Of a DNA stretch of 64,000 bases, positions 6,433-59,963 are shown in pieces. The notes beneath the pieces were generated by a model. It made no database searches. It saw only the letters and a list, made by a program, of their open reading frames with translations, and was not told where the DNA came from. Position numbers and translations under genes: made by a program. The stretch's first letter is position 1, and every line of letters begins with the position of its first letter. The DNA is from a virus: positions 3,862 to 67,861 of IMG/VR virus record IMGVR_UViG_3300044547_000928; one strand, given 5' to 3'.

Positions 6433-6540
6433 CAGGCGGAGAGGGGCATATATAACCCTCAACCTCTACTTTAGGTTTAGGCGTGGGGGCCAGGGCGCGC
6501 GGGTCGCTGTGATATATCAGCAATATATTCTAAAATGAAG

Positions 6541-6569
6541 TTGCTATTATCGCACATTGGGTGTATAAT
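6541..6569 (+). promoter_or_regulatory. sigma70-type promoter
   Basis: TTGCTA-17-TATAAT. Confidence 0.8.
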
Positions 6570-6606
6570 TTATAGGGTAAGGAACAACCACAACGGAAGG
6601 AACACA

Positions 6607-6777
6607 ATGAAACAAAAAATCGAATTGCTAAGAGTACTTCTCGTAATCATTGAGGAGATGAACGGGACACACGACTTCATCGGCAAAGATGATGTACAGC
6701 AGAGATTGCGCTGGACAGCCAAGTCGCTTGCGGAACAAATCCACGACAAGCGTCTTGACTTGACGGTATCGGCATAA
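6607..6777 (+). CDS. Small hypothetical protein
   Basis: GGAAGGA RBS before ATG 6607. Confidence 0.7.
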   Translation: MKQKIELLRVLLVIIEEMNGTHDFIGKDDVQQRLRWTAKSLAEQIHDKRLDLTVSA

Positions 6778-6793
6778 TCTGATACAATAGATG

Positions 6794-6870
6794 TAGTCGG
6801 CGGGGCGAAACCGCACAACATAGAGGGCCGTGTGCCAAGTCGGTTGTAGCCAAAGTAACCCGCCGATTAT
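6794..6870 (+). ncRNA. Candidate structured small RNA
   Basis: Own promoter TTGACG(6760)-17-TACAAT; closing stem GTAGTCGGCGGG/CCCGCCGATTAT; inner AACCG/CGGTT and GCACA/TGTGC; no ORF. Confidence 0.5.
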
Positions 6871-6945
6871 TTACAAATAAGGTTGTGATTAGTGATACAA
6901 CCTGCTATAATGGATATATACCAAATGAAAGGAACACAACACAGT

Positions 6946-7172
6946 AAGTAATTCTTGACAACACATAGGTGGACATACTTCTCACCGCATCAAGTTTTGT
7001 ATCCCAGCGATAGCACGATAGCCCCTCACACTTTCCTAGGAAGTCCCTGTAGGGCTTGGCACTCCCTCCTGCGTGACCAACCTCTGTCGGATTAGAAAGT
7101 CACTACGAAACCCTCTGCTGGTGCAACAGCGGTAAATATGTGGGAACTGACGAGTTCTGTTGAGAATTACTT
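6946..7172 (+). ncRNA. Candidate structured RNA of about 225 nt
   Basis: Own promoter TTGTGA(6883)-17-TATAAT; 15-bp closing stem AAGTAATTCTTGACA/TGTTGAGAATTACTT with G-U pairs; several inner hairpins; no long ORF. Confidence 0.55.
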
Positions 7173-7178
7173 AGTGGG

Positions 7179-7207
7179 TTGTGTTTTATACAACAACCTG
7201 CTATAAT
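7179..7207 (+). promoter_or_regulatory. sigma70-type promoter
   Basis: TTGTGT-17-TATAAT, TG extension. Confidence 0.8.
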
Positions 7208-7249
7208 ATAATAGCAAGGATAAACCAAACTAACAAAGGAGAAAATCAA

Positions 7250-7675
7250 ATGAGTACAGCATTACAAATTGCCGAATATGTGGACAACATGGATATGTTC
7301 GGAATTGAGAGTACAGAAATCAAAACAGCAGGACTGTATTCAGTCCGAGGCGAAAACACAATGCTCGTGGCAGAACACGGTGATGTGTACGAAATGCTTG
7401 AGAGCGTAGAGGCGCAAGCCGTTGCTATGTTGTCAGACGCAGTCGTAGTTCGCACCGCTGGCTGGGCTTCACCTATCGCAGATGATGGTGACGAGTACAA
7501 AGGCGTAGCACCGTCAGAACACCCACAACGCAGGCGAGTTCGCTTGCTCGTAGTGGCAAAGGCTGGCGAAACAGCAAGCGTGCTTCGCTTTACAGATGAC
7601 TGGGCAAACCCTATCTTTGACGAAGGTCAAGCAACGGGCAGTCTGGCAGACGCAGTTCAGTCGCTGTTCGTCTGA
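7250..7675 (+). CDS. Hypothetical protein (PSEHP.RRRV motif)
   Basis: ACAAAGGAGA RBS before ATG 7250. Confidence 0.8.
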   Translation: MSTALQIAEYVDNMDMFGIESTEIKTAGLYSVRGENTMLVAEHGDVYEMLESVEAQAVAMLSDAVVVRTAGWASPIADDGDEYKGVAPSEHPQRRRVRLLVVAKAGETASVLRFTDDWANPIFDEGQATGSLADAVQSLFV

Positions 7676-7682
7676 AAAAATC

Positions 7683-7723
7683 TAGTGGGGCAGGTTGCGA
7701 AACTTGCCCCACTATGATATAAT
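7683..7723 (+). promoter_or_regulatory. Hairpin-promoter cassette
   Basis: TAGTGGGGCAGGTT-GCGA-AACTTGCCCCACTA; TTGCGA-17-TATAAT. Confidence 0.88.
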
Positions 7724-7767
7724 ATAAGAGTAAGATAAACAAACCGCAAGGCGGAGAGGGGACAACT

Positions 7768-7854
7768 ATGTACTTTTTAGGGTTCGCAATCGGGGTAGTC
7801 CACGGGCTACTCGCTGGCTACGCCGTAGCGGTACTAAGTAAAAAAAATAAGTAA
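7768..7854 (+). CDS. 28-aa single-transmembrane micro-protein
   Basis: MYFLGFAIGVVHGLLAGYAVAVLSKKNK after its own promoter and GGAGAGGGG. Confidence 0.55.
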   Translation: MYFLGFAIGVVHGLLAGYAVAVLSKKNK

Positions 7855-7860
7855 ATGAAG

Positions 7861-7889
7861 TTGCTTTATATGCTACAACAGTGTATAAT
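7861..7889 (+). promoter_or_regulatory. sigma70-type promoter
   Basis: TTGCTT-17-TATAAT. Confidence 0.8.
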
Positions 7890-7936
7890 GTAATAGCAAG
7901 GAAAAACCAAACCAACACAACAAAGGAGAAAACATA

Positions 7937-16174: not shown

Positions 16175-16557
16175 CCGCCGAGGGAACTGAGCCGAGGAGA
16201 GGCGCGCGGGCTTCGCACTCCAGGGCTCACCCAAGGGCGCACGAGGGCGACGCAGGGCTTCCGCAAGGAGGAGGGCCAGGGCGTTGGCTGGCGTTGGCGT
16301 CCCCGCAGGAGGGGCGCGCGGGCTTCCGCTGGCGTTCAGAAAAAAAACAGAGGGTCGCGGGTCAAGGGCGTTCACGCCAAGGGTTGGCACCAGGGCGCTC
16401 CCAGGGCTTCAGGTGGTGCGCGCAAATAATCGTCCAACTGAGGGCTTATCCGAGGGGGAAGGGTCGCGAGGGTGGCGCAAGGGTGATATGCCGTTGATAT
16501 ATCACGGGAGGAGGGTCGCGAGGGTTGGCGAGGCTCACGCCCCGCCCGCCGTTGGCG

Positions 16558-16671
16558 TCAGTCCACCGCCTTGTAGCAACAATCGAGGCAGTAGCCCTCA
16601 GCGCCCTCAACCTTGTCGTTCAGGCAATCGCTTGCCTCGCACTTATTGTCTATGTCGTGTGTGTTTGTCAT
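16558..16671 (-). CDS. Leaderless Cys-rich micro-protein (37 aa), the only minus-strand gene called in the early region
   Basis: Minus-strand promoter TTGCAT(16706-16701)-17-TATACT, ATG 6 nt later; CEASDC...YCLDCC. Confidence 0.62.
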   Translation of the reverse strand: MTNTHDIDNKCEASDCLNDKVEGAEGYCLDCCYKAVD

Positions 16672-16788: not shown

Positions 16789-17079
16789 ATGGGCAACTTA
16801 CACGCAGACGGCGCTTGGATAGAATTCACCAAGTGGCGCGACACCTGCATAAACTCAACCAATATCGAGAATGTCTATATGGCAGGCGATACACGCTACA
16901 CCTTGCAACTCTCGCGTAAGCAACAGCGCGACTGCGCGGTGGTGGGCGCGGTGTACCGTGCAATTCACACGGACGCCGAGACGGGCGTTACCCAAGCCGT
17001 CAAGGCAGGCTCATTCCGCATTGAGCCGAACGGCGAGGTGACACGCTACCCAGTGGGGTTGCGCGCGTTACTCCGCTAA
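16789..17079 (+). CDS. Hypothetical protein (GSFRIEPNG.V.R.P motif)
   Basis: GAGAGGA RBS. Confidence 0.8.
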   Translation: MGNLHADGAWIEFTKWRDTCINSTNIENVYMAGDTRYTLQLSRKQQRDCAVVGAVYRAIHTDAETGVTQAVKAGSFRIEPNGEVTRYPVGLRALLR

Positions 17080-17091
17080 ATAAGTGGAAAA

Positions 17092-17137
17092 ATAGTGCGG
17101 GTTGGTGGTTGCAATTACTGCCAACCCGTGCTATAAT
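17092..17137 (+). promoter_or_regulatory. Hairpin-promoter cassette
   Basis: ATAGTGCGGGTTGGTGGT / ACTGCCAACCCGTGCTAT; TTGCAA-17-TATAAT. Confidence 0.85.
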
Positions 17138-17276
17138 ATAAGTATGAGATAGCGCGACAGAGCCCCGCTAAAAAGGCGGCGCGGGGTGCTGGCGTTGGCG
17201 TGAGGGCGCAGAGGGTCGAGCCAAGGGCGCAAGGGTCGAGGGAAACGCTCAAGGGTCGAGGGCAGGGACCAGACCG

Positions 17277-17329
17277 CCCGAGGAACGGAAGCGCGAAATA
17301 AACCCGAACCCAAGGAAACACCATATTCT
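17277..17329. repeat. Three-part dispersed element, copy 5
   Basis: CCCGAGGAACGG-N7-AAATAAA-N17-ACCATATTCT. Confidence 0.9.
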
Positions 17330-17343
17330 TGGCGCAGGGGCCG

Positions 17344-17481
17344 TGATATATCTCTGATATATCACGGCAAAACCCACAAAACGCGGGTCGGTGATATATC
17401 ACCAAGATATCACGCCCGTGATATATCACACTCTCCGCGTTCGCCGTTGAGAGTTATCCACAGGCTAAAAAGTTATCCACA
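17344..17481. promoter_or_regulatory. Cluster of four TGATATATC dyads and two DnaA boxes
   Basis: Dyads at 17344, 17355, 17392, 17419; TTATCCACA at 17454 and 17473. Confidence 0.85.
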
Positions 17482-43490: not shown

Positions 43491-43534
43491 TATAAATAAC
43501 CCCGCGGGGTTCATACAAGAGATTGACTGAGGTC

Positions 43535-46500
43535 ATGGCTCAAAAATTTACAGTACCAGTAACGATTAAGAATCTGTCATCGGCAGGCTCGGATGGTATA
43601 ACTGTATTTCTTGACCAGGAATCTTTTGCAAGACTTAAGGTAGAAGCGGGCGGGCGCATTACATGGGGTGCTGGCGCTGGCGCTGGCGATACAAACCTAT
43701 ACCGCGACACTGCAAATGTCCTCAAGACTGATGATACTTTTAAGTCAGAGGGACTTTTTGTTGCTGGAACACAGATTGACCCAAGCGGTGCAACTCTCGG
43801 CGACGCTCTTGTATTTAATGGGACCAAGTTTGTCTCTGCATCAGTCGCTGCTGGTGGTGGAACTGGAAATGCCTCACTAACTATTTCGGACACTCTGCCA
43901 GTCGGCGGAGAAGAGGGAGACCTCTGGTTTGAGTCCGACACTGGAAAGACATTTGTTTATTACGACTCATTCTGGGTTGAAGTAGGCGGTGGCGTAGGCG
44001 CGCAAGGCCCAACTGGACCAACTGGTGCGACTGGAGCAACTGGAGCAACTGGACCACAAGGACCTACTGGTGCCACTGGGCCTGCTGGTCCTTCTGGTTC
44101 AACTGGACCATTGGATGGCTTGTCAGATGTAAGTGCATCTACTCCATCAACTGGAGATTTTTTAAAGTGGGATGGAACTGCGTGGGTAAATGACGCAATC
44201 AACCTCGGAACAGATACTGCTGGGCTGTATGTAGCAGACCTTATTGCTGGCACTGGTGTAACTATTAGTAATAGTTCTGCAGAAAGCGCAAGCCCAACCA
44301 TAGCAATTGGTCAGTCAGTAGCAACTAGTGCTTCAGTGACTTTTGCTCATGTCGCTGCTGATGTAACTGGAAATATCACTGGAAATATAACTGGTAGTTC
44401 TGGTTCTACCACTGGTAACGCTGCGACGGCAACTGCTCTACAGAGCGCGCGCAATATCTCGCTAACTGGTGATGTTTCTGGTTCTGTATCGTTCGACGGA
44501 ACATCTGATATTTCAATTACGGCAACCGTACAACCAAACTCAGTTGCCCTTGGCACAGATACAACTGGCAACTTTGTCAACGACATTACTGCTGGAACTG
44601 GCGTATCCGTTACTCACACGCCTGGAGAGGGTTCATCACCGACAATTGCTATCGGTCAGGCTGTTGGAACTTCATCTTCTGTACAGTTCGCAGCGGTCAC
44701 TGCACCGTTGGTCGGTAATGCCTCTACTGCTACAACGCTTGAAAATGCACGAACAATCTCTTTGGGCGGAGATGTAAGTGGCTCTGTTTCTTTCAATGGC
44801 TCATCTGATGTAAGTATTTCGGCAACAATTCAGCCAAATTCGGTCGCGCTAGGAACAGACACAACTGGAGACTATGTCTCATCACTTGTCGCTGGTACTG
44901 GTGTTGCACTAACGAATAATAGCGGTGAAACTGCTACCCCAACAATCGCAATTGGACAAGATGTAGCCACTAGCGCTTCTGTGACATTTAGTCATGTTTC
45001 AGCACCAGTAACTGGAAATGTAATTGGTGACTTGACTGGAAATGCAGATACAGCAACTGCGCTTGAGACAGCACGAACCATCTCCCTCGGTGGAGACTTA
45101 AGCGGTTCTGCTTCTTTTAACGGAACTTCAGATATAACCATAAGTGCAAGCGTTGTTAACTCTGGTGTTATCCTTGATGAAATTTCAGATGTTGTAATTG
45201 CTTCTCCAATTCAATTCCAAGGATTGATGTATGACGGAACCAACTGGGTAAACAGCAACATCCCAAATACATACCTTGTCAGGAATGATACTGGCTCAAC
45301 AATACTCAAAGGAACCTTGGTTGGTGCTGTTGGCGCAGAGCCTAGCGGAAGAATAGATGTTGCACCGTTTCAAGTAACAGGAACAGAAAACTCAGAACTT
45401 CGTGCGATGGGCATTGCTACAAGCAATATATCTAACGGCGTTAACGGCGAAGTGATGAGTTTTGGAACTCTAACTGGTCTTGACACAAGAGGAAGCACCG
45501 TCAGTGCACTTGCGGTCGGTGACGAGACTTGGGCTGCTGGTGACATCCTTTTTGCCCACCCAACCGTTGATGGGAAACTCACAAATGTAAGACCACAACA
45601 CGACCTTGCTGTTGCATTCATTACAGTTCGTCATGCTTCTTCTGGTCAGATTGCAATCAGAATTATTCCTGGTAACAACCACCTTGAGTGGATGCATGAT
45701 GTTGTTTTAACATCTCCAACCGATGGACAGTTTTTGCGTTACAACAGCGCATCAACTGTATGGGTCAACGACACAATCAACCTTGGGACTGATACCGCTG
45801 GAGATTATGTTCAAAGCCTGACTGCTGGAACTGGTGTAACACTCAGTAACAACTCTGGTGAAGGAGCGACCCCTACGGTTGCAATTGGCCAGAGCGTGGA
45901 AACTAGCGCTTCGGTTACATTTGCTCACCTCATCGTTCAGGGTGACATGGAGGTTCAGGGAACTATCACCCGCCTCAATGAAACAAACCTAGATGTTGAG
46001 TCTGCATTTGTTTATCTAAATGCAACTAGCGCAAGTGCTAACCCAGACATGGGTGTTGCTTTCAACTACAACGACGGAACATACCGCCATGCTGGATTGT
46101 TCCGAGATTCAAGCGACGGAGTATTTAAGGTTTTTGAAGGATACGAGCCAGAGCCAGTATCGCCAATCAACACATCTGATGCAACATACAGCGATGCAAG
46201 GTTCCAGGCGGAGAGCATTATTCTCACCCAGACAACTGGCACTGCTCCAATGTCTGTTTCGTCTTCAACTGTTGTCGCAAATCTTAACGCTGACAAACTT
46301 GATGGGCAAGACGGCTCATACTACGCACCAATTGATAGTCCAACATTTACTGGAACAGTAAGTCTTCCAAATAACACTGTTGCTCTTGGTACGCAGACGA
46401 CAGGAAATTATGTAGCAGATATAAGTGGCGGCACTGGTGTCACGATTACCCACACCCCAGGTGAAGGAACAACGCCAAGTGTTGCTATAGGTCAAGATGT

Positions 46501-47848
46501 TTCTACATCTGCCAGCGTCACTTTTGCGGCTGTAACGGCACCAGTAGTTGGTAACGCCAGTACTGCATCTACACTTCAAACACCACGCACTATTTCTCTA
46601 AGCGGAGATATATCGGGTTCTGTTTCATTCAACGGCTCGTCAAATGTTGATATTTCTGCAACGATTCAGCCCAACTCTGTTGCCCTTGGAACCGATACGA
46701 CTGGCAACTATGTCGCTGATGTTGTTTCTGGAACAGGAATCACTATTACGCACACCCCTGGAGAGGGTTCGTCTGCATCTGTTGCGCTCAACGCAACGCT
46801 TGATGATTTGAGCAATGTCAGCGCCTCTGCGCCCGTTGATTACAGTCCCCTTATTTGGTCTTCATCTGCATCTGCATGGATTGCAAATAGTCAAGACCTC
46901 ACCCTAGGTACACCTGGCACTACTGATTATGTAACGATAACTTCTTACAACAGCCATATTGCTATGTCTTCAGCGACAGAAGGCATGGTGCAAATAACGC
47001 CAAGCCAATTCTCTGGTTCAGACATAGATAATGGTCCATACTTCTTGCTAAACGCTAACAACTTGACATTCAGCAACGGCTCTGATTCGTTCTTGATTGA
47101 CCCATATTGGGGTACGAGTGGTCAAGTCTTGGCGTTTACTCCTGGTGGCGGTAGTGGTGGAACATGGGGACCAACAACCCTTAACCTTGACAACATTGCT
47201 GATGTCAGTGCTTCTGCTCCAACCGACGGCCACTTCCTCAAGTATGTCTCTGCTTCTTCTGCATGGATTCCTGCGGCAGTTCCAACAATTAATTTCCTAG
47301 ATGACATAGGAAATGTCTCTGCATCAGCACCCTCAATTAATGATGTTCTTGTTTACAACGGTTCAGTGTGGACTTCTGGTTCAGCATCAGGTGGTGGAGC
47401 AAGTGTTACCGTTTCAGACACCGCACCAGCGTCACCAAGTGCTGGTGACTTATGGTTTGAGTCAGATACAGCACAAACTTTTGTTTATTACGATTCCTCG
47501 TGGATTGAAATTGGCGCTGCTGCAATGGGTGCCACCGTTTCCACGACTTCACCAAACTCGCCTATCGCTGGTCAGATTTGGTTTAATTCTGATACTGGCG
47601 GTACTTATGTTTACTTCGGAACAACATGGATTGAAGTAGGAGCAGTAGCGGCCAATACGGTATTCAACCTTGCTGATGCCAAGGGTGATTTGATTGTGGG
47701 TACAGCAAATAACGCTCTAGACAATTTGGCTGTTGGCTCTGATGGTTCAGTTTTAACGGCTGATTCTTCTACGGCTACTGGTCTAAAATGGGCTACCCCA
47801 GTTTCAACAGGTAAAGCAATCGCAATGTCAATAGTTTTCGGAGGATGA
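43535..47848 (+). CDS. Long fibre protein with a short collagen segment and repeated shaft modules
   Basis: GPTGATG run; repeated ARTISL.GD.SGS.SF.G and GTDTTG.YV modules; GDLWFESD domains. Confidence 0.85.
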   Translation: MAQKFTVPVTIKNLSSAGSDGITVFLDQESFARLKVEAGGRITWGAGAGAGDTNLYRDTANVLKTDDTFKSEGLFVAGTQIDPSGATLGDALVFNGTKFVSASVAAGGGTGNASLTISDTLPVGGEEGDLWFESDTGKTFVYYDSFWVEVGGGVGAQGPTGPTGATGATGATGPQGPTGATGPAGPSGSTGPLDGLSDVSASTPSTGDFLKWDGTAWVNDAINLGTDTAGLYVADLIAGTGVTISNSSAESASPTIAIGQSVATSASVTFAHVAADVTGNITGNITGSSGSTTGNAATATALQSARNISLTGDVSGSVSFDGTSDISITATVQPNSVALGTDTTGNFVNDITAGTGVSVTHTPGEGSSPTIAIGQAVGTSSSVQFAAVTAPLVGNASTATTLENARTISLGGDVSGSVSFNGSSDVSISATIQPNSVALGTDTTGDYVSSLVAGTGVALTNNSGETATPTIAIGQDVATSASVTFSHVSAPVTGNVIGDLTGNADTATALETARTISLGGDLSGSASFNGTSDITISASVVNSGVILDEISDVVIASPIQFQGLMYDGTNWVNSNIPNTYLVRNDTGSTILKGTLVGAVGAEPSGRIDVAPFQVTGTENSELRAMGIATSNISNGVNGEVMSFGTLTGLDTRGSTVSALAVGDETWAAGDILFAHPTVDGKLTNVRPQHDLAVAFITVRHASSGQIAIRIIPGNNHLEWMHDVVLTSPTDGQFLRYNSASTVWVNDTINLGTDTAGDYVQSLTAGTGVTLSNNSGEGATPTVAIGQSVETSASVTFAHLIVQGDMEVQGTITRLNETNLDVESAFVYLNATSASANPDMGVAFNYNDGTYRHAGLFRDSSDGVFKVFEGYEPEPVSPINTSDATYSDARFQAESIILTQTTGTAPMSVSSSTVVANLNADKLDGQDGSYYAPIDSPTFTGTVSLPNNTVALGTQTTGNYVADISGGTGVTITHTPGEGTTPSVAIGQDVSTSASVTFAAVTAPVVGNASTASTLQTPRTISLSGDISGSVSFNGSSNVDISATIQPNSVALGTDTTGNYVADVVSGTGITITHTPGEGSSASVALNATLDDLSNVSASAPVDYSPLIWSSSASAWIANSQDLTLGTPGTTDYVTITSYNSHIAMSSATEGMVQITPSQFSGSDIDNGPYFLLNANNLTFSNGSDSFLIDPYWGTSGQVLAFTPGGGSGGTWGPTTLNLDNIADVSASAPTDGHFLKYVSASSAWIPAAVPTINFLDDIGNVSASAPSINDVLVYNGSVWTSGSASGGGASVTVSDTAPASPSAGDLWFESDTAQTFVYYDSSWIEIGAAAMGATVSTTSPNSPIAGQIWFNSDTGGTYVYFGTTWIEVGAVAANTVFNLADAKGDLIVGTANNALDNLAVGSDGSVLTADSSTATGLKWATPVSTGKAIAMSIVFGG

Positions 47849-47849
47849 A

Positions 47850-48209
47850 ATGACAGCACCAAATATAGTCAATGTAACAACTATCACAGGCAAAACTGCC
47901 GTGCAGCAAGTTACTACTGCCGCCACGGCTATCGTGACAAACGCCGCATCAAGCAACAAGGTGTTTAAAGTAAATGCTCTATATGTTGCAAATGTTGACG
48001 GCGTGAACGCCGCAGACATCTCTGTTGGTTTGTACCGTTCTTCTGCTTCTGTTTCTTACGAGATTGCCCACACTGTTTCGGTCCCAGCAGACGCAACGCT
48101 AGATGTCATTAGTAAATCTATTTATCTAGAAGAAGGCGACGAATTACGCCTTACCGCATCTGCCAACTCTGACCTTGAAGCAGTATGTAGTTATGAGGAG
48201 ATTAGTTAA
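47850..48209 (+). CDS. Small beta-rich structural protein, paralog A1
   Basis: Similar to 51628 and 57464 (AN.D, L..G..L, C-terminal EE). Confidence 0.78.
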   Translation: MTAPNIVNVTTITGKTAVQQVTTAATAIVTNAASSNKVFKVNALYVANVDGVNAADISVGLYRSSASVSYEIAHTVSVPADATLDVISKSIYLEEGDELRLTASANSDLEAVCSYEEIS

Positions 48210-49132
48210 TGGCTGGACCAGGTGGTTCTATTGGACCGAAGCGAACTAGTACGAATGGGATGTTAAATTTCACAACCCTTCAGCAACTTGTTCTGACGGG
48301 TCCCACGGGAACAGTTGAGTATTTGGTTGTCGGAGCGGGTGGGGGTGGAAACTCTGCTGGAGGTGGTGCAGGCGGTATGCGAACAAACATGGTTGGCGCA
48401 ACCTCTGGTGGTGGTGGTGCGGCAGAAGCATCATTTCCAATAACGACAGGCACTGCATACACAGTGACAATAGGTGCTGGCGGTGCTGCTGGTTTCTGGC
48501 CCGAACCTGGTGGGTACAAAGGTGGAGATAGTGTTTTCTCAACCATCACAAGTATTGGTGGAGGAGGAGGTGAGCATGGCGCTCAGTATGGTGCTGGAGA
48601 TACAAAAAATGGTGGCTGTGGAGGTGGTGGTGGCTACAATAACGCTGGTGGAACTGGGACAACAAATCAAGGGTTTGGGGGAGGAAGTGGCGTAAATATT
48701 GCAACTGGCTATCCTGGTGGTGGTGGTGGTGGTACATCTTCCGCTGGCAGCAATGCGTCAGGGCAAAATGGCGGCAATGGTGGTGCAGGTACCAACTCGT
48801 CAATAACGGGTAGCACCATTGCATATGGTGGTGGTGGAGGTGGTGGGTCACGACAGGGTGCTGGTTCTGCTGGTTCGGGTGGTTCTGGCGGTGGCGGTAA
48901 CGGTTCAAACTCCACAACAGCCACTTCAGGAACCGCCAACACTGGTGGAGGTGGAGGTGGCGGTGGTGTCAATTCTGGTCTAGTTGGTGGTGCTGGTGGG
49001 TCTGGCGTTGTGGTCATTCGCTACCCCGCCACATTCTCAATTGCTTCAGCAACCACTGGTTCCCCAACCGTAGCAATCACAGGTGGTTATCGGATATATA
49101 CTTTTACTGCATCGGGCAGTATAACTTTCTAA
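48209..49132 (+). CDS. Glycine-rich structural or adhesin protein
   Basis: EYLVV.GGGG, TVTIG.GG, NTGGGGGG, GGSGVV.IRY, YTFT.SG. Confidence 0.85.
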   Translation: MAGPGGSIGPKRTSTNGMLNFTTLQQLVLTGPTGTVEYLVVGAGGGGNSAGGGAGGMRTNMVGATSGGGGAAEASFPITTGTAYTVTIGAGGAAGFWPEPGGYKGGDSVFSTITSIGGGGGEHGAQYGAGDTKNGGCGGGGGYNNAGGTGTTNQGFGGGSGVNIATGYPGGGGGGTSSAGSNASGQNGGNGGAGTNSSITGSTIAYGGGGGGGSRQGAGSAGSGGSGGGGNGSNSTTATSGTANTGGGGGGGGVNSGLVGGAGGSGVVVIRYPATFSIASATTGSPTVAITGGYRIYTFTASGSITF

Positions 49133-49143
49133 GGAGAAAAAAC

Positions 49144-49512
49144 ATGGCACATTTTGCAGAACTTGGCGAAGACAACATTGTATTGCGAGTAATCGTAGTA
49201 TCTAATGATGATTGTAAAGACTCAGAGGGCAACGAATCAGAAGCCGTAGGCGCTGAATTCTGTCGCAATCTTTTGGGCGGAACATGGAAGCAGACCTCAT
49301 ATAACGGCAACATGCGTGCTCGTTATGCAGGAATCGGCTACAAGTATGACTCTGCTCTAAACGCATACATCGCCCCAAAACCCTTCCCATCATGGACTCT
49401 CAATGAAGAAACTACTGAATGGGAAGCCCCTGTCGCTCGCCCAGAAGAAGGAATGTACACATGGGACGAAGACGGACAATCGTGGGTGGAATTCGTTATT
49501 CCGACGGAATAG
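49144..49512 (+). CDS. Fibre-associated small protein (MAHFA...QTSYN...YAG.GY...P.P..SW)
   Basis: AAGGAGA RBS; paralog of 50936. Confidence 0.82.
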   Translation: MAHFAELGEDNIVLRVIVVSNDDCKDSEGNESEAVGAEFCRNLLGGTWKQTSYNGNMRARYAGIGYKYDSALNAYIAPKPFPSWTLNEETTEWEAPVARPEEGMYTWDEDGQSWVEFVIPTE

Positions 49513-49515
49513 TCT

Positions 49516-50085
49516 ATGTCCCTTAATTTTCCTTCCTCTCCAAGCGTTGATGATACCTACACAGTAGGTGCTCGTACATGGACATGGACTGGCTCTATTT
49601 GGGAACTTAGGTCTACTACAGTTGGTGTTGGTTCTATCGGCACAACCGAATTAGCCGATAGTGCTATAACCAGTGCAAAGATTGCTGCTGGAGCAGTTGC
49701 TGAAGCGGATATTGCTAATAGCGCAGTCACGCAAACGAAGTTGGCTGATAGGTCTGTTGGTTCATCAAAATTGACTGGCTTAACTATAAATGCACAAACT
49801 GGAACTACATACACACTCGCACTTAGTGATGCACACGATTTAGTTACATTAAGTAACGCCTCGGCAATTTCTCTTACTGTCCCAACCAACGCTTCTGTGG
49901 CTTTTGATATTGGCGACCAAGTAAACATAGTTCAACTTGGTGCTGGTCAGGTTACTGTTGGTGGTGCTGGAGTGACGCTTCGTTCGCAAGGTTCTAAGTT
50001 GAAACTCAACGGACAATACTCAGCGGCTACTTTGATAAAAATTAACTCTGATGAGTGGGTTTTAGTCGGCAATACGGCGGCATAG
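49516..50085 (+). CDS. Structural protein (LNFP.SP N-terminal domain)
   Basis: Paralogous N-terminus to 51283 and 54952; IT.AKIA repeats. Confidence 0.8.
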   Translation: MSLNFPSSPSVDDTYTVGARTWTWTGSIWELRSTTVGVGSIGTTELADSAITSAKIAAGAVAEADIANSAVTQTKLADRSVGSSKLTGLTINAQTGTTYTLALSDAHDLVTLSNASAISLTVPTNASVAFDIGDQVNIVQLGAGQVTVGGAGVTLRSQGSKLKLNGQYSAATLIKINSDEWVLVGNTAA

Positions 50086-50087
50086 TC

Positions 50088-50936
50088 GTGCAAATCATTG
50101 GCATCGCTAACTCCTATGACTCTGTAACACCTACAGTTGAATATCTTGTTATTGCTGGTGGCGGTGGAGGTGGAACATTTACTGGTGGTGGCGGTGGAGG
50201 TGCTGGCGGATACCGTACAACTACTGGAACATCAGGTGCAAACAGTGCCTCTGAATCACAACTATCAATAACTGCTGGAACTGCATACACAGTTACTATT
50301 GGTGGAGGTGGTGGTGCAGTAACTAGTGGTTCTGATTCAGTTCTTGGTTCTATCACTTCCGTTGGTGGTGGTCGTGGTGGTAACTGGAACGAACGAAGTA
50401 GTGGAGCAAGTGGTGGTTCAGGCGGTGGTGGTTGTGGAGGTACATCAAGCGCTAAATCTGGTGGTTCAGGAACTGCAAACCAAGGAACATCAGGTGGAGC
50501 AAACTTCACTGCATCACAATACGGTGCAGGTGGTGGTGGTGGAGCAAGTGGTGGCGGTGGAAACGGTTCATCAACTGTTGGTGGTAATGGTGGTGCTGGT
50601 CTATCTAACTCAATTACTGGTACTGCTGTGACCCGTGGCGGTGGTGGAGGCGGTGGTGGCGACTTTACTAGCGGTGGTTCAGGTGGTTCAGGTGGTGGAG
50701 GAAACGGTGGTTCTGCCACTGCTGGTTCAACAAATACAGGTGGTGGAGGTGGTGGAACAACTTATGGCGGTAGCGGTGCATCAGGTGGTTCGGGAGTAGT
50801 AATTGTTGCTTATCCTGATTCATACCTTCCAATAACAACAATTGGCGCAGGACTTACATACTCTGTTAGCACAGTAAGCCGTGCTGGCTACAGGGTTTAC
50901 ACATTTACGGCTGGAACAGGAACGATAACATTCTAA
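50088..50936 (+). CDS. Glycine-rich structural or adhesin protein
   Basis: Same motif set as 48209; GTG start inferred. Confidence 0.82.
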   Translation: MQIIGIANSYDSVTPTVEYLVIAGGGGGGTFTGGGGGGAGGYRTTTGTSGANSASESQLSITAGTAYTVTIGGGGGAVTSGSDSVLGSITSVGGGRGGNWNERSSGASGGSGGGGCGGTSSAKSGGSGTANQGTSGGANFTASQYGAGGGGGASGGGGNGSSTVGGNGGAGLSNSITGTAVTRGGGGGGGGDFTSGGSGGSGGGGNGGSATAGSTNTGGGGGGTTYGGSGASGGSGVVIVAYPDSYLPITTIGAGLTYSVSTVSRAGYRVYTFTAGTGTITF

Positions 50937-51283
50937 TGGCGCACTACGCATTTCTAGATGAAAACAATATTGTTACACAAGTGATTGTGGGGCGAAACGA
51001 AGATGAAGTAGTCGACGGTATTTCGGATTGGGAAAACTATTACGGTGAACTTGTGGGTCAAAAGTGTGTTCGTACCTCGTATAACCACAACATCCGCAAG
51101 CAATATGCAGGTATCGGGTACGCATACGATGTTGATACTGATGTTTTTATTTCGCCACAACCATACCCTAGTTGGTCGCTTGACGAGAATCATGATTGGC
51201 AAGCCCCCTATCCGAAACCAGAGGGAGATAAGTTCTATAATTGGGATGAAGATATTTTGGAATGGAAAGAGATTGAAGCATAA
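50936..51283 (+). CDS. Fibre-associated small protein (MAHYA family)
   Basis: Paralog of 49144. Confidence 0.82.
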
Positions 51284-51627
51284 TGGCTATAGATTTCCCT
51301 AACTCCCCGTCTAACGGAGCAACTTATTCTGCTGGCGGAAAAAACTGGCAGTACAACGGAACTGCATGGGTCCTTCAAGGTATTGTCCCATCGATTCCCG
51401 ATGCATCAATCACGGCTACACAACTTGCATCAAATGCTGTCACTACTGCAAAAATAGCAACAGACGCTATTACTGCAGCGAAACTAGCGGCTGGAGCGTC
51501 TAATACCTATGTCCTTACCGCTGACTCCAGCACCACTTCAGGCGTAAAATGGGCTATAATTCCTGCATCTGGCGGTCTTTCAACGACTACAGAGGGAGCA
51601 ATTATGACGATGAGTATCGGAGGATAA
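51283..51627 (+). CDS. Structural protein (IDFP.SP N-terminal domain)
   Basis: TAATG coupling. Confidence 0.8.
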
Positions 51628-51966
51628 ATGGCAATTGGAGACAGAAACGAAGCGCGGCTTGGTGGTCCAGTCCAATTGGGTACATCTACGACCACGATTG
51701 TAACCGCTGCAACTGGCTATGCCGATATTATTAAGCAGTTAATCATAGCAAACACAGACACGGTTGACCGTACTGTGACTTTGGCTATTGGTTCTGCTGC
51801 TTCTCCGTCGTATCACATTATGTCGGCTCTACCTATTGGCGCAAACGACCTTATGGTGTTTGACACCGCCATCGTATTAGCCGCTGGTGAAACCCTGCAA
51901 GGTTTGTCAGATACAGCCGCCAAAGTAACAGTTACAGCCGTTGGCTGGGAGAAGCAAACCGCCTAA
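51628..51966 (+). CDS. Small beta-rich structural protein, paralog A2
   Basis: RL.GP.QL.T, KQ.I..NT. Confidence 0.8.
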   Translation: MAIGDRNEARLGGPVQLGTSTTTIVTAATGYADIIKQLIIANTDTVDRTVTLAIGSAASPSYHIMSALPIGANDLMVFDTAIVLAAGETLQGLSDTAAKVTVTAVGWEKQTA

Positions 51967-52982
51967 TGGGTCTTAGTTCTGCCTACGGTCTTGGTTCTAT
52001 TAGAACAGGTGTATGCACTAGTACTTCTCGCCCTGCGTCACCTTTTGTAGGTCAAACTATCTTTGAAACTGACACAAAATTAGTGCGTGCGTGGCTTGGT
52101 ACTGCATGGTCTGCAGGTTTTAAACACTCAGTCACTCTTGCTATTGAATATGTTGTTGTTGCTGGCGGAGGTGGCGGTGGAAGACCATATGCTGGTGCTG
52201 GTGGAGCAGGTGGTTACCGCTCGTCCGTTGTTGGCGAATCAACTGGTGGTGGTGGCACCATTGAATCTGTTTTAGGTTTGCCAATAGGAACATATACCGT
52301 AACTATTGGTGCTGGTGGTGCTGGCGGGAACCCAGACGGTGCATTTATGGTTGGTGCTACTGGAGCAAATACAGTTTTCCACACTATTACATCACTGGGT
52401 GGAGGTGGTGGTGGTAACTATGACTCAGCCTATCCACCTACCAACGGTGGTTCTGGAGGCGGTGGTGGCGGTGAGCAGTCTTCACATCGAGGTTCTGGTG
52501 CAACTGGACAAGGATTTGAAGGAGGATACGGAAGTAGTGGTGGAATTTACCGAGGCGGTGGTGGAGGTGGCGCAGGAGCCGCTGGAGCATCAGGAAATAC
52601 AACTGGGAACGGTGGTATTGGCGTTCAAACATCTATAAATGGCACCGCAACATATTTTGCTGGCGGTGGAGGCGGTGGTCTTTACAACGCTACTTCTGGT
52701 TCTGCTGGCTCAGGTGGCACTGGTGGAGGTGGAGCAGGTGGTAAAGGTGCTGCTGGTACAGCAGGGACTGCAAACACTGGTGGTGGCGGAGGTGGTCAAG
52801 GTGGAATTGGAAGCGGTGCAACTGGTGGTGGAAACGGTGGTGCTGGCGGTTCAGGTATTGTAATTTGCCGATATACAACGACAGATGCAACTGGTTACAC
52901 GATTACAGGTGGAACTAAAACAACATCGGGCACATATACAATCCATACATTTACAGCCTCTGGTAGTTTGGTAATAGCATGA
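51966..52982 (+). CDS. Glycine-rich structural or adhesin protein
   Basis: GVCTST.RPA.PF.GQ.I.ETDT N-terminal module plus Gly-rich domain. Confidence 0.85.
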   Translation: MGLSSAYGLGSIRTGVCTSTSRPASPFVGQTIFETDTKLVRAWLGTAWSAGFKHSVTLAIEYVVVAGGGGGGRPYAGAGGAGGYRSSVVGESTGGGGTIESVLGLPIGTYTVTIGAGGAGGNPDGAFMVGATGANTVFHTITSLGGGGGGNYDSAYPPTNGGSGGGGGGEQSSHRGSGATGQGFEGGYGSSGGIYRGGGGGGAGAAGASGNTTGNGGIGVQTSINGTATYFAGGGGGGLYNATSGSAGSGGTGGGGAGGKGAAGTAGTANTGGGGGGQGGIGSGATGGGNGGAGGSGIVICRYTTTDATGYTITGGTKTTSGTYTIHTFTASGSLVIA

Positions 52983-53602
52983 CCATTTCTGCTACTACAC
53001 AAGGTTTGAAACCTGGAGTTTGTACTTCAACTAATCGTCCTGCTAACCCGTTTGACGGCATGATGATTTACGAGACTGATACAAACCTTGTGTGTATTTG
53101 GAATGGTACAGCGTGGAAAACATTATCGTATTCTGATTACGCATCAGGTACTGTTTTGCAGGTTGTCAATACACGCAAAACTGATGATTGGGTTGCTACA
53201 ACAGGCACCACCTACACAGATGTAACTGGTTTAAGCGCTTCAATAACTCCGTCAAGTGCCTCAAATAAAGTACTTATTACCATATCATTATGTGCTTCAT
53301 CTGATAGTGGTAACTTTGGCTATGCAAGAATGTTGCGAGGAGCAACAGAAGTTGGTGCAAGTCAAAATCCTGGATATGGCGGGTTTGGTTCTGTTTTGCA
53401 TGATGGCGGAACTACTGGTGGTAACTATTACAAAACAATAAGTACCTCTTTCTTAGATAGTCCATCTACCACTAGTGCAACTACTTATAAGATACAAATG
53501 TGCCACCATTCCGCTGGCGGTATTGTTTCTGTAAACCGCCGTGCTGGTTTTACTGGAATATTTGGAACTTCAACTATTACATTGCAAGAGATTGCGGGTT
53601 AA
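52979..53602 (+). CDS. Fibre-tip-like protein
   Basis: Same N-terminal module; VLQVV, ITP.S..NKVL, DSP.TTSA.TYK. Confidence 0.8.
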   Translation: MTISATTQGLKPGVCTSTNRPANPFDGMMIYETDTNLVCIWNGTAWKTLSYSDYASGTVLQVVNTRKTDDWVATTGTTYTDVTGLSASITPSSASNKVLITISLCASSDSGNFGYARMLRGATEVGASQNPGYGGFGSVLHDGGTTGGNYYKTISTSFLDSPSTTSATTYKIQMCHHSAGGIVSVNRRAGFTGIFGTSTITLQEIAG

Positions 53603-53604
53603 TT

Positions 53605-54789
53605 ATGCCTTTGTCATCTGTTGTTGGAGCACAGTCGATTGTTAAGCCTGGTGTGTGTACTAGTACCACTAAGCCCGCATCACCGTTTGATGGTCAGGTT
53701 ATTTATATGACTGATGTTGACCAGACAGCGGTGTGGGATGGTTCACAGTGGACTGTGTTGGCTCCTATTGCTGGTGGTCGTAATGTGATTATCAATGGCG
53801 ATATGCAGGTTGCACAACGAGGAACAAGTTTTTCATTCCCTTCTGCTGGTGGTGGTTTTTGGTGGGGCGCAGATAGGTTCAGCACTCTTGACTACACCTG
53901 GACTGCTGGTTCAAATATCACAGTTTCTCAAGAAACATCTGTAGTGCCAACTGGTTTCAATTCAGCGTACAAAATTGCTACTGGTGCGACTGGTTTAACT
54001 TTTGGTTCTGGTGGTGTTATGCGAATCAGAACCCTTATTGAGGGCTTCAATATGCGTGCGCATTATTCCAAAACGATGACTTTATCGTTTTGGGTTCGTT
54101 CAAGTATTGCTGGAACATACAACTTGTTTTTAGAAAATGGCAACTGGGATGCCAGTACGACAACTCGTGCCTTTCAGCCCGAATACACAATCAGCGCAGC
54201 AAATACTTGGGAAAAGAAAACAATTACTATTGATATGGCTTCGGCAACATCGGCTGGTACATGGGGTACAACCAATGGTATTGGTTTAGGCATAACTTGG
54301 TGTCTTGGCGCAAACGCAAACAGAACTGGTGACGCATATAAAAGCGCTTGGACAACATATAGTTCTATCCATATGCAAACCTCTACTGGAACTCAATGGG
54401 CAACGAACGCTAATGCTACATTTTACCTAACTGGTGTGCAGTTAGAGGCTGGTGCTGTTGCTACACCATTTGAGTTTGAAGACTACGGGACAACACTCGC
54501 CAAATGCCAACGGTACTACGAGTCTGTCAGTTGGGGCATCTACTATGCGGCTGCACTTGCTGGAACAGACATCTACCTGCCACTCTCTTACAGAGTTACA
54601 AAAAGAGTCGCACCGACCGTGACCCTGCCATCATCAACTAACGCAATCAGAAACACATCAAACGCCAACGCCACCCCAATATATGCTTGGACAACAAACG
54701 GCACAACAGATATGTTCAACATCTACGCTGGAAGCAGCAGTATTTGGGCAATTAACGCAGGTACGGCAACAGCATCGGCGGAACTCTAA
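53605..54789 (+). CDS. Fibre protein with carbohydrate-binding-like domain
   Basis: RN.IINGDM.VAQRG, TLSFWV, GVQLE.G..ATPFE, CQRYY. Confidence 0.82.
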   Translation: MPLSSVVGAQSIVKPGVCTSTTKPASPFDGQVIYMTDVDQTAVWDGSQWTVLAPIAGGRNVIINGDMQVAQRGTSFSFPSAGGGFWWGADRFSTLDYTWTAGSNITVSQETSVVPTGFNSAYKIATGATGLTFGSGGVMRIRTLIEGFNMRAHYSKTMTLSFWVRSSIAGTYNLFLENGNWDASTTTRAFQPEYTISAANTWEKKTITIDMASATSAGTWGTTNGIGLGITWCLGANANRTGDAYKSAWTTYSSIHMQTSTGTQWATNANATFYLTGVQLEAGAVATPFEFEDYGTTLAKCQRYYESVSWGIYYAAALAGTDIYLPLSYRVTKRVAPTVTLPSSTNAIRNTSNANATPIYAWTTNGTTDMFNIYAGSSSIWAINAGTATASAEL

Positions 54790-54962
54790 TGTACAAAATC
54801 ATGCGTTCACGCTCCAATGAAATCATGACTATCAATGTTGAGCAAGCGGATGGGTCTGTAATGTGCATCCCAACCGACCCCGCTAACTCTGACTACCAGC
54901 AATACCTAGCATGGGTTGCTGAAGGTAACACCGCCGAAGAATGGAGTCCTGATGCCACTTAA
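54789..54962 (+). CDS. Small fibre-chaperone-like protein (57 aa)
   Basis: IP.DP.NSDYQ.YL.W..EGN; TAATG coupling. Confidence 0.72.
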   Translation: MYKIMRSRSNEIMTINVEQADGSVMCIPTDPANSDYQQYLAWVAEGNTAEEWSPDAT

Positions 54963-55239
54963 TTTTCCTGACTCCCCAGATACCAACGATATCTACACAG
55001 TAGACACAAGTTCGTGGAAATTTGATGGTGAAAAGTGGCTGATTCTTTCCGCCTCCGCCTCTATAGATACGCTTAATTCGCTCACAGATGTATCTATATC
55101 CTCACCCATAAGTGGTGAGGTTCTAGCATATAATGGCAGTACATGGGTTAATGAGTCTGTGCCGTCTGGAGGCTATCTAGATGGCGGGAACGCCCTTACG
55201 GTTTATGAGAACGAGCCGATTGACGGAGGAGCAGCATAA
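54952..55239 (+). CDS. Structural protein (LNFP.SP N-terminal domain)
   Basis: Third paralog; ends IDGG. Confidence 0.75.
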   Translation: MPLNFPDSPDTNDIYTVDTSSWKFDGEKWLILSASASIDTLNSLTDVSISSPISGEVLAYNGSTWVNESVPSGGYLDGGNALTVYENEPIDGGAA

Positions 55240-57464: not shown

Positions 57465-57826
57465 TGGCATTAACACAAAAGCGCTTGGTTGGCCCAACCC
57501 AACTGACCACAACAACATCTACGGTTCTCTACACGACGCCGATTAGCACCACGACCATTGCAAAGCAGATTATTTTGTGCAATACGACTGGCAGCGCCGT
57601 GACTGTAACTCTTGCCCTAAAGCCATTAAATGTTACTCAGGCAACATCGCACAACTTCACAAGTGCACTTTCACTGGCGGCAAACGAAACCATTACGATT
57701 TCAACTTCTTTGGTTTTGAACAATAACGGAAGCACTGCAAACGCTACAAATAGCGACCAAATCATTGGTTATGCAAGTTCAAACACAGCAGTAAACATTA
57801 TTGTAACTGGTATCGAGGAGTCGTAA
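57464..57826 (+). CDS. Small beta-rich structural protein, paralog A3
   Basis: RL.GP.QL.T, KQI.L.NT. Confidence 0.8.
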   Translation: MALTQKRLVGPTQLTTTTSTVLYTTPISTTTIAKQIILCNTTGSAVTVTLALKPLNVTQATSHNFTSALSLAANETITISTSLVLNNNGSTANATNSDQIIGYASSNTAVNIIVTGIEES

Positions 57827-58560
57827 TGGCATCGTTCGTTCGCTTAAATGGAACGACAATATCAACTGCAGAAAGTACATCTACAATTTCAAGTACATGG
57901 ACAAATGTGGTTGATTATGTAAATGTTCCTGACCCTATTTATAACTCTGGCTCAGATGGAACTGCAACCATATCTAGCAACACCTCATTATCAGAAGATA
58001 AGTTTTACACAAACTTGACTATTGATGACGGTGTCACTCTTGCAACAAATGGATATAGGCTTTTTGTGCGCAATGTCCTCACCCTTGGTTCTGGTTCCAG
58101 AATTGGCTATACGACTGGGTATTCAACTGCTGGAACATTGGGCCAAGGTGGCGCCACAAGTGCCGCTGTAACTCACAGTCTTGGCGGAAATAGCGCTACG
58201 CATACTGCCACCGCCCCATCAGCAGCGCTTGGTGGCTCGCTCTACTATCAACAACCACTCCAAGCGGTAAGAGGATGGGCTGTGTCTGCGGCTAGTCCAA
58301 CACCAACATTTCTTCGCGGTGGTGCTGGTGGAACCGTTGGAGTCGGCGGCGGAGTAGTCATGGTTGTAGCAAGATATATAACAGTTTCATCTGGAACTGC
58401 ATATATTTCTGCCCCTGGAACAGCGGGTGCTGGCGGAGGTGGAGGCGGTGCTATTTTAATCATCTCTTCAGCATCAAGTCTTAATGCCTCAGTATCCACG
58501 GATGTGAGTGGAGGCACTGGCTGTGCTTCTGGAACTGTATACTACATGCAGGTCGCATAA
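57826..58560 (+). CDS. Gly-rich structural protein
   Basis: G.DG...IS.N..L....Y.NLT...G.TL.TNG...FV module shared with 58560. Confidence 0.8.
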   Translation: MASFVRLNGTTISTAESTSTISSTWTNVVDYVNVPDPIYNSGSDGTATISSNTSLSEDKFYTNLTIDDGVTLATNGYRLFVRNVLTLGSGSRIGYTTGYSTAGTLGQGGATSAAVTHSLGGNSATHTATAPSAALGGSLYYQQPLQAVRGWAVSAASPTPTFLRGGAGGTVGVGGGVVMVVARYITVSSGTAYISAPGTAGAGGGGGGAILIISSASSLNASVSTDVSGGTGCASGTVYYMQVA

Positions 58561-59948: not shown

Positions 59949-59963
59949 CGAAAAGGGTAAAAA

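Follow-up and report, generated by a model that had tools for sequence, protein, structure and literature searches.

The window analysed here is a 64,000-nucleotide (nt) stretch of viral DNA (positions 3,862 to 67,861 of the IMG/VR record IMGVR_UViG_3300044547_000928), numbered from its first letter. The source record is a virus of 67.9 kb with a completeness estimate of 52%, and the window holds a tailed-phage gene set: a T4-type large terminase (Terminase_6N/6C), a portal, a prohead protease and an HK97-type capsid. Within its early-gene region, which has DUF932 and DUF1281_C (Api92-like) genes, lies an element that is flanked by two promoter-like sites and carries no conserved open reading frame (ORF). 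A preliminary description of the sequence had taken this element for an unannotated phage non-coding RNA (ncRNA) in a cassette of its own. The tailed-phage record, the two flanking sites, the covarying helices and the contigs from RNA libraries described below agree with that description, and positions 6942–7176 almost certainly represent a genuine family of structured ncRNA. The features of the locus are as follows, with helices named P and conserved unpaired regions CS.

6883–6911, + strand: promoter of the RNA gene (TTGTGA, 17-nt spacer, TG, TATAAT; extended −10; 10 of 12 consensus matches in the promoter scan)
6926–6952, + strand: 8-codon mini-ORF (MKGTQHSK) in the leader, overlapping the P1 5′ strand
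6942–7176, + strand: whole structured RNA, about 235 nt including the extended terminal stem; multi-branched core 6945–7173, about 230 nt
6945–6960, + strand: P1 5′ strand, terminal stem of 16 base pairs (bp), from sequence, minimum free energy (MFE) fold and covariation
6962–6967, + strand: P2 5′ strand CACAUA, partner 7137–7142, from MFE fold and covariation
6994–6996, + strand: P3 5′ strand GUU, 3-bp long-range helix with 7079–7081, window pair read by hand
6997–7011, + strand: CS1, near-invariant single strand UUGUAUC(A)CCAGCRAU, 15–16 nt, the most conserved segment of the family
7020–7024/7052–7056, + strand: AGCCC/GGGCU helix around P4, from the MFE fold, in window-type sequences only
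7030–7044, + strand: P4 hairpin, stem ACUU/AAGU, loop U-CCUAGG, palindrome at 7035–7040
7058–7078, + strand: CS2 pyrimidine-rich region, with CUCCCUCCUGCG at 7062–7073 in a candidate hairpin GGCAC/GUG(A)CC read by hand
7079–7081, + strand: P3 3′ strand AAC, partner 6994–6996, window pair read by hand
7115–7132, + strand: P5b hairpin CUGCUG-GUGCAA-CAGCGG (7115–7120/7127–7132), from the MFE fold, placed by hand in the window type
7137–7142, + strand: P2 3′ strand UAUGUG, from MFE fold and covariation
7144–7157, + strand: P6 hairpin GAACU-GACG-AGUUC (7144–7148/7153–7157), GACG loop invariant
7158–7173, + strand: P1 3′ strand, followed by the conserved UAGUGG
7179–7207, + strand: promoter-like site of the next cassette (TTGTGT-17-TATAAT, read from sequence), starting 6 nt after P1
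7250–7672: orphan protein of 141 residues (about 145 in its family), adjoining the RNA in most lineages

The promoter called by the scan at 6883–6911 is the consensus promoter that the preliminary description had placed before the RNA, and an inverted repeat, GGTTGT/ACAACC, spans its −35 element. The 8-codon ORF, described earlier as the only one ahead of the stem, is present as well; since other lineages lack it, with no ATG at the corresponding place in the related contigs L043 or L056, it is probably meaningless. The second promoter-like site has ACAACCTGCTATAAT in common with the RNA's own promoter; in its place the promoter scan called an overlapping site, TTTATA-16-TATAAT at 7185–7212. 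No + strand terminator-like site was called between the RNA and the next gene by the promoter and terminator scan.

The terminal stem pairs 6946–6960 with 7158–7172 over 15 bp, including two G-U pairs, exactly as first described. U6945–A7173 adds a sixteenth pair and, past a G-G mismatch, C6942–G7176 and A6943–U7175 extend the stem further. The MFE fold holds this stem together with CACAUA/UAUGUG, AGCCC/GGGCU, CUGCUG/CAGCGG and GAACU/AGUUC, at −74.7 kcal/mol compared with −62.9 ± 4.85 kcal/mol for shuffled sequences (z −2.43; 1 of 200 shuffles as good). The predicted fold energy alone is modestly better than chance, and the comparative evidence is the real test; the L043 homologue folds with a z of −6.23.

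Homologues, covariation and non-coding status

Homologues were reached through a neighbour protein, which led to the relative L002 (92% identical), and through the terminase, which pointed to 35 related contigs. When 20 of the related records were searched at the DNA level, one more close copy emerged, together with a 32-nt match in two more distant records, each of which holds a diverged copy with the same architecture. A covariance model, R1, found matches in 6 of 37 related records, including two additional lineages, L056 (66.9 bits) and the AT-rich L057 (44.4 bits). Two-motif patterns extended the set: 66 stretches in viral contigs, where 3 of 62 new loci were true by the model, and 38 stretches in metagenome contigs, where 14 loci were true. 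There are now 15 distinct full-length homologues and one truncated homologue in about six lineages, namely the window type (five sequences), the L043 type (two), the L146 type (one and the truncated one), L141 (one), the L056 type (five) and L057 (one). Identity between lineages is 40–73%, and all homologues come from related contigs of uncultured freshwater phages.

Further patterns were less productive. An exact 35-nt pattern, which crossed variable sites, had no match in viral contigs; the pattern GTAAG...TGACAACACATAGG gave no record beyond the four already known; and none of 11 new loci found in viral contigs with a 3′-domain pattern matched. CS1 and CS2 together marked 16 stretches in species genomes, none of which matches the model. 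CS1 alone marked at least 120 stretches in viral contigs, and the 76 new loci searched among them included three weak matches (E 0.018–0.093), one of which was read and is not a homologue. A second covariance model, R2, had no match in three and then in 151 sampled Actinomycetota genomes, a sample from which absence cannot be concluded. Within the reach of these searches, the family is restricted to one clade of uncultured freshwater phages.

We propose to define the family by P1, P2, a 3-bp P3, P4 with a palindromic CCNNGG loop, P5b, P6 with a GACG loop, and CS1, with an additional helix, P5a, outside the window type. This combination occurs in 14–15 sequences; the window-type lineage, in which P3 and P5b were positioned manually, lacks P5a. 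L057, the most divergent member, has only P1, P4, a GACG hairpin and pyrimidine-rich strands in common with the family.

The structure was evaluated on 14 sequences aligned with R2, which was built from nine non-window-type sequences and a hand-set structure. Over 42 pairs, 98.8% of 518 cells pair, compared with 81.9 ± 1.2% in column shuffles, none of 500 reaching the observed value; the observed percentage is inflated by the fitting of the alignment to the structure. When the 3′ partners were slid by 1–3 columns, 30–48% of cells paired, and the number of pairs with changes on both sides fell from 24 of the 42 to 1–4. This gap to the slid controls strongly suggests more than model fitting can explain.

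Six helices covary (P1, P2, P3, P5a, P5b and P6), and P4 is a seventh hairpin with covarying stems, found in all 15 sequences, where its stem takes eight different complementary forms. P1 has 19 pairs, of which 8 changed on both sides, with 98.1% of cells paired. P2 has 3+1 pairs, with C-G/U-A/U-G and A-U/G-C variants. All three pairs of P3 changed on both sides, with 100% pairing in the nine sequences aligned there and the variants AAG/CUU, ACG/CGU, GCG/CGC and ACU/AGU in other lineages. P5a and P5b together have 11 pairs, 7 of them changed on both sides, in the nine non-window-type sequences; in these other lineages P5b has a conserved CUUGCUA loop and is enclosed by P5a, a further 5-bp helix, and within the window-type lineage P5b shows a U-A to C-G exchange (L042) plus G-U/A-U exchanges. 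P6 has 5 pairs, 4 of them changed on both sides, and is 100% paired in 14 sequences. Because the sense strand scores higher than the antisense strand (66–254 bits vs 22–30 bits) and G-U pairs are many, the data fit selection acting on the transcribed strand.

The inner helices of the preliminary description fared differently. CACATA/TATGTG, GCTG/CAGC and GAACT/AGTTC covary, like the terminal stem, far beyond chance, whereas AGCCC/GGGCT belongs to the MFE fold but is confined to the window-type lineage and so lies outside the reach of covariation; in L123, one change opens its innermost pair. The proposed TTGGCAC/GTGACCAA helix is one version of the local hairpin around CS2 and calls for a reservation: two substitutions (7074 and 7077), found in three of five window-type sequences, are non-compensating, and its outer AA is required by another covarying helix. 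In this central domain (7012–7114), the strand after CUGC can pair either locally around CS2 or with the four bases just 5′ of P4 (UCAC, 7026–7029, with GUGA, 7073–7076, read by hand). The two pairings exclude each other, some covariation is seen by eye for both, both are disturbed by the substitutions at 7074 and 7077, and the MAFFT columns are inconsistent there.

A side observation concerns the closure of P1. In the L056 type, the leader (L056 1487–1520, also in L072, L134 and L156) contains GUAGUGG, which repeats the 3′ tail of the RNA and can pair with the P1 start CCACUAC in a small hairpin rivalling terminal-stem closure. This hairpin may be a co-transcriptional folding device.

A protein-coding explanation was considered and rejected. 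One frame is open over 56–74 codons in several lineages, but the same frame is interrupted by 6 stops in window-type sequences and by 3 in L141, is broken by a frameshift in L072 and lacks a common start codon, and the changes between homologues compensate for one another in pairs. The seemingly conserved amino acids of this frame all correspond to codons within the invariant RNA strand; the homologues keep the pairing rather than a reading frame.

The Rfam comparison suggested in the preliminary description showed that no catalogued family matches the RNA core. Rfam 15 gave no match at gathering thresholds over the whole window; at E ≤ 10 there were five weak matches, all at 7161–7305 (13.6–20.5 bits, thresholds 35–49.9) and none in the core 6945–7157. 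ARAGORN found no tRNA or tmRNA gene in the window. Literature searches found no description of this RNA and no paper joining DUF932, phage and non-coding RNA. As it is not in Rfam 15 and no description was found in the literature, this is a new, uncatalogued RNA family.

Sequencing runs holding part of window 6700–7700 were identified, and four (X1, X2, X4 and X8) were compared over 6500–7900. In X4, a riverine metatranscriptome, the sole contig is 205 nt long and covers 6960–7160 with no difference. X8, a lake metatranscriptome from a different study, has a 179-nt contig covering 6969–7147 with one difference, and its only other piece is an 86-nt relative at 7463–7548 (depth 2). Coverage extends across the whole region in X1, probably a DNA run, and in X2, a deep RNA run. 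The region, whose lack of transcription would have spoken against an RNA gene, is thus present in RNA libraries, and the contig pattern hints weakly at an RNA that is discrete and stable, from contigs that give no RNA ends, strand or abundance and come from libraries in which DNA carry-over is possible.

Besides X4 and X8, no fewer than 13 other runs with an RNA label, X2 among them, contain 8–19% of the sampled words of 6700–7700; most are riverine, and they stem from many studies. Their share, about equal to what the RNA alone would contribute to this 1-kb stretch, is a lead. The evidence given here leaves aside 22 runs, beyond the four compared, in which small shares of the stretch occur.

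Conserved strands and possible roles of the RNA

Outside the helices, conservation is concentrated in CS1 and in a small number of loops and pyrimidine-rich strands. CS2 occurs as CUCCCUCCUGCG in the window, with the variants GUCCCUUCUGCG and GUUCCUCUCCUGCG; further conserved motifs are AGUCCCUG, the UAGUGG after P1, the CUUGCUA loop and the GACG loop, and L057 carries about six CCUCU/CCCUCC strands. The loop that the preliminary description had called anti-Shine-Dalgarno is pyrimidine-rich in all lineages, but CCUCC itself is absent in L043 and L044, which have CCCUUCUGCG there.

Each RNA has one self-complementary CCNNGG, always in a hairpin loop (15 of 15 sequences). The hexamer in this P4 loop is CCUAGG in five lineages and CCGCGG or CCAUGG within the L056 type, so that its two central bases, which cannot pair inside one hairpin, yet remain complementary through two changes. 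Because these bases change jointly though they are unpairable within one hairpin, the sequences suggest that the P4 loops of two molecules pair with each other.

Possible targets were sought among complements of the two strands. None was found for CS1 in the window besides the RNA's own site. The 9-mer CGCAGGAGGG, complementary to the CS2 loop, has four matches in the window including the RNA's own site, where 0.36 are expected; the three other exact complements lie inside AGGG-rich islands and recur in the close relative G037. As neither the window-type locus L123 nor the L056-type record has these complements, they were dropped as evidence for a target.

The AGGG islands themselves (14299–14641, 15405–15805, 16078–16641 and 17059–17424) are non-coding, with a GC content of at least 62%, and lie between promoter cassettes. 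Their AGGG motifs (CCAGGGC, GAGGGCTT) are on the + strand only, with up to 17 AGGG per 300 nt, and L123 and L160 have similar islands at about 9–10 kb downstream of their RNA. Such islands might serve as iterons, form G-quadruplex tracts or act as an RNA sponge.

Taking these features together, we tentatively propose that the RNA is stable, made early and works in trans, as a decoy or sponge and possibly in dimeric form. This is the most likely of the readings considered here, though short of even odds. Host RNA polymerase would transcribe the RNA early, from its own strong promoter, and the terminal stem of 16–22 bp would define and protect the mature RNA. Since no + strand terminator follows the RNA and the next promoter-like site begins 6 nt past P1, the mature form is probably cut from read-through transcripts, possibly by an RNase III-type activity, or protected within longer transcripts by this terminal duplex. 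The folded core would then display the near-invariant strand of 15–16 nt, several CCCU/CUCC strands and the self-complementary hairpin loop. Acting in trans, and perhaps joined to a second copy by a kissing loop, the RNA would titrate a factor of the host or the phage that binds the displayed strands. Candidates for this factor would be a purine-rich, Shine-Dalgarno-like RNA, or an RNA-binding protein or nuclease.

Several observations weigh against this proposal, beside the fitted alignment and the limits of the library contigs given above. CS1, the best-conserved segment, is not pyrimidine-rich, and the RNA overall is not C-rich (C/G 0.92–1.22), for which reason an earlier idea of a Rho decoy was dropped. 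The conservation of the P4 palindrome amounts to only two independent changes, the CS2 complements are missing from the two records named above, and no target co-varies with the loop. The simple promoter scan called no + strand promoter upstream of the RNA in L043 or L056, where promoter-like sites read by eye have 8 of 12 matches and TG. Finally, the 230-nt multi-helix fold exceeds typical base-pairing small RNAs (sRNAs) in elaborateness.

Precedents exist for pairing of this kind. In staphylococci, the UCCC-loop sRNAs (RNAIII, Rsa) pair through C-rich loops with Shine-Dalgarno-like regions of mRNA without a chaperone, and the 6C sRNA, which is host-encoded and shorter than 100 nt, has two hairpins with C-rich loops. 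The decoy or sponge proposal draws on this precedent of C-rich-loop pairing in Gram-positive bacteria, for which PMC6486639 describes 6C of Actinobacteria as pairing, independently of chaperones, with G-rich, Shine-Dalgarno-like mRNA. The likeness lies in pyrimidine- or C-rich unpaired strands on hairpins and in the host phylum, probably the same for 6C; the RNA here differs in being phage-encoded, about 230 nt long and built of at least seven helices, with a most conserved strand that is not C-rich. It has no Rfam match to 6C at E ≤ 10, and no target was found for it.

Phage ncRNAs that neutralise RNA-guided or RNA-cutting host defence by mimicry, such as the pseudo-ToxI of phage PhiTE and RNA anti-CRISPRs, offer a second comparison. 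These known decoys are repeats copied from the host system, whereas the RNA here has no internal tandem repeats, and no host counterpart of it was seen in the 151 sampled Actinomycetota genomes or the 16 pattern stretches from species genomes.

Among orphan RNAs with complex folds and no known function, often found in phage genomes, ROOL, GOLLD and OLE are 500–800 nt long and raiA about 200 nt. All four have Rfam models, none of which matches here. According to 10.1101/2024.12.08.627333, several such ornate RNAs form RNA-only homo-oligomers; for the present RNA, oligomerisation is inferred from one palindromic loop. At the level of the motif only, CCUAGG, CCGCGG and CCAUGG also resemble a retroviral dimerisation site, with organism, size and role unrelated. 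In HIV-1 subtypes, the dimerisation initiation site has a six-base loop palindrome whose central bases change in pairs that keep self-complementarity.

Two further classes were rejected. 6S RNA has a rod-like fold with a large central bubble mimicking an open promoter; the supported fold here is multi-branched, not rod-like, and there was no Rfam 6S match. A retron msr-msd RNA would have an adjacent reverse transcriptase gene, and no reverse transcriptase domain was found at the locus, where the neighbours are DUF932, small orphans and the 141-residue orphan, or among the 20 window proteins scanned, which represent part of the ORFs.

Alternative explanations

A doubtful but serious alternative is that the RNA is the subunit or scaffold of a phage ribonucleoprotein, formed with the 141-residue neighbour or another phage protein. 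Near-invariant unpaired strands within a complex fold are typical of protein-bound RNAs, and the adjacency of the two genes survives a rearrangement: a homologue of the protein immediately follows the RNA in the window type, L044 and the L056 group, and immediately precedes it in L146 (E 8e-21, E 2e-37). The protein belongs to a large family (852 metagenomic relatives at E ≤ 0.001) with an invariant motif, GWA.P...PS.HP.R.RV, whose basic part PSxHPxRRRV has invariant H, P, R and R. This association is nevertheless incomplete and may be mere synteny of related phages, as L043, with an RNA near-identical to that of L044, has a different 58-residue gene downstream and no homologue of the protein within the 1.3 kb examined, and the neighbour in L057 shows no similarity to it (E 0.06). 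The protein also bears no mark of RNA binding: it belongs to no Pfam or PHROG family, and no sequence in the PDB matches it (best E 0.14). A first structure model had a predicted local distance difference test (pLDDT) score of 60.7 and a second, confident one of alpha/beta type 86.6; the latter gave no Foldseek match at E ≤ 0.001 (best VIA Z 5.0). An Atlas lead to a PPA1309-like family (0.88, among otherwise unnamed clusters) was unconfirmed by the Pfam scan.

The packaging RNA (pRNA) of phi29-type phages (RF00044) deserves particular comparison, being likewise phage-encoded, with its own early promoter, an end-to-end closing helix and a multi-branched core, and keeping its structure while its sequence diverges, with the potential for intermolecular Watson-Crick loop pairing preserved by covariation. 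In pRNA, two different complementary loops build a ring on the portal of phi29-like podoviruses, whose genomes are protein-primed. The RNA here has a single self-complementary loop, a T4-type large terminase in its genome and no Rfam match. Sequences read by hand showed no second covarying partner segment, with one palindromic loop per RNA, and the genome is not of phi29 type, with its Terminase_6N/6C, HK97-type capsid and portal in a 67.9-kb record at about 52% completeness.

It is improbable, though of interest, that the RNA forms a self-dimerising anti-defence or host-takeover particle, in which P4-joined copies would present multivalent anti-Shine-Dalgarno-like strands and CS1 and so trap a host factor at an early stage of infection. 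The trapped factor could be a sequence-specific endoribonuclease toxin cleaving at pyrimidine motifs, purine-rich mRNA leaders or the phage's own AGGG-repeat transcripts. If true, such a particle would be an RNA-only counter-defence device without known relative.

We also consider it unlikely that the element acts in cis on the early transcript, as an RNase III-type processing or stabilising module or as an antitermination RNA like the put sites of HK022. No + strand terminator-like site precedes the next gene, whose promoter begins within 6–20 nt, and many hairpin-in-promoter modules (family D12) lie downstream in this phage. The P1 duplex of 16–22 bp is sufficient for RNase III, which acts on duplexes of such length. 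On the other side, the RNA and the downstream gene each have their own promoter, the downstream gene varies among lineages, and the contigs of RNA libraries cover the RNA element alone; moreover, processing sites and RNAs of the put type consist of just one or two hairpins (50–80 nt), compared with a 230-nt core with six covarying helices and invariant loops.

A ribozyme or ligand-binding RNA of unknown class would be in keeping with the size, multi-helix junctions and invariant unpaired nucleotides, which resemble catalytic or aptamer cores, but it seems very unlikely, as none of the ribozyme and riboswitch models in Rfam gives a match at E ≤ 10, no conserved gene lies downstream and there is no sign of a cleavage site. 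That the locus is no RNA gene at all, and instead a small or decayed protein gene or a DNA site such as an origin or operator, is barely credible: the frame open in several lineages and the P4 palindromes, readable as DNA-binding sites, stand against the stops, frameshift and missing common start, the pair-compensating rather than codon-patterned changes, and the G-U pairs and strand scores that point to a single transcribed strand.

Few complex-folded phage ncRNAs have a known role, and each one solved (pRNA, RNA antitoxin mimics, RNA anti-CRISPRs) gave a new principle. The present family is small and well defined, with covariation enough for a secondary-structure model and with signs of expression in nature, and it offers experimental handles in its palindromic loop, invariant strand and pyrimidine-rich strands. 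The phages that carry it infect abundant, hard-to-culture freshwater bacteria, and almost no early-gene functions are known there. The family also illustrates that RNA genes overlooked by annotation pipelines can sit in the gene-sized 'empty' cassettes of phage early regions.

Source phage and surrounding sequence

The phage is distant from those in collections. Its terminase is at most 46% identical to that of any deposited phage, and searches of a cultured-phage collection gave no match (blastn with 6780–7260; tblastn with the DUF1281-like neighbour). A gene for a WhiB-family transcription factor at 2065–2436 (Pfam E 4e-20) suggests Actinobacteria as the likely host phylum, because WhiB is, to our knowledge, confined to Actinobacteria and their phages. 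Weaker hints are one neighbour-gene homologue named from a Pontimonas metagenome-assembled genome and the Atlas clusters, which are commonest in Actinomycetota. The RNA element is present once in its own record. In most lineages the DUF932 gene is directly upstream of the RNA, at a distance of 270–370 nt, increasing to 930 nt in L146 and 2.2 kb in the window.

A second small structured RNA may be recognised just upstream, at 6760–6875, with a promoter (TTGACG-17-TG-TACAAT) at 6760–6788 and a hairpin domain of about 75 nt with an 11-bp closing stem (6794–6804/6859–6869) and AUUAUUU at its end (z −3.46). Compared with L002, one pair changes from C-G to U-A and a second double change adds an A-U pair. 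The same place in L043 and L056 holds a shorter hairpin flanked by two tandem promoter-like sites.

Further into the window, promoter cassettes are repeated at 9781–9861, 10552–10632, 11149–11229, 11716–11796 and 16024–16104. In these, the −35 element lies between the arms of a GC-rich inverted repeat, as in GCCCGCTAGG TTGCAA AGCCTAGCGGGC ... TGCTATAAT, and the arms covary between copies; the cassettes may be combined terminator-promoter modules. Finally, the region 43523–59950 contains several large ORFs whose products carry glycine-rich GGxGGx and collagen-like GxT/GxP repeats and are probably tail-fibre or decoration proteins, together with repeated modules of 150–270 nt (repeat families D1–D19).

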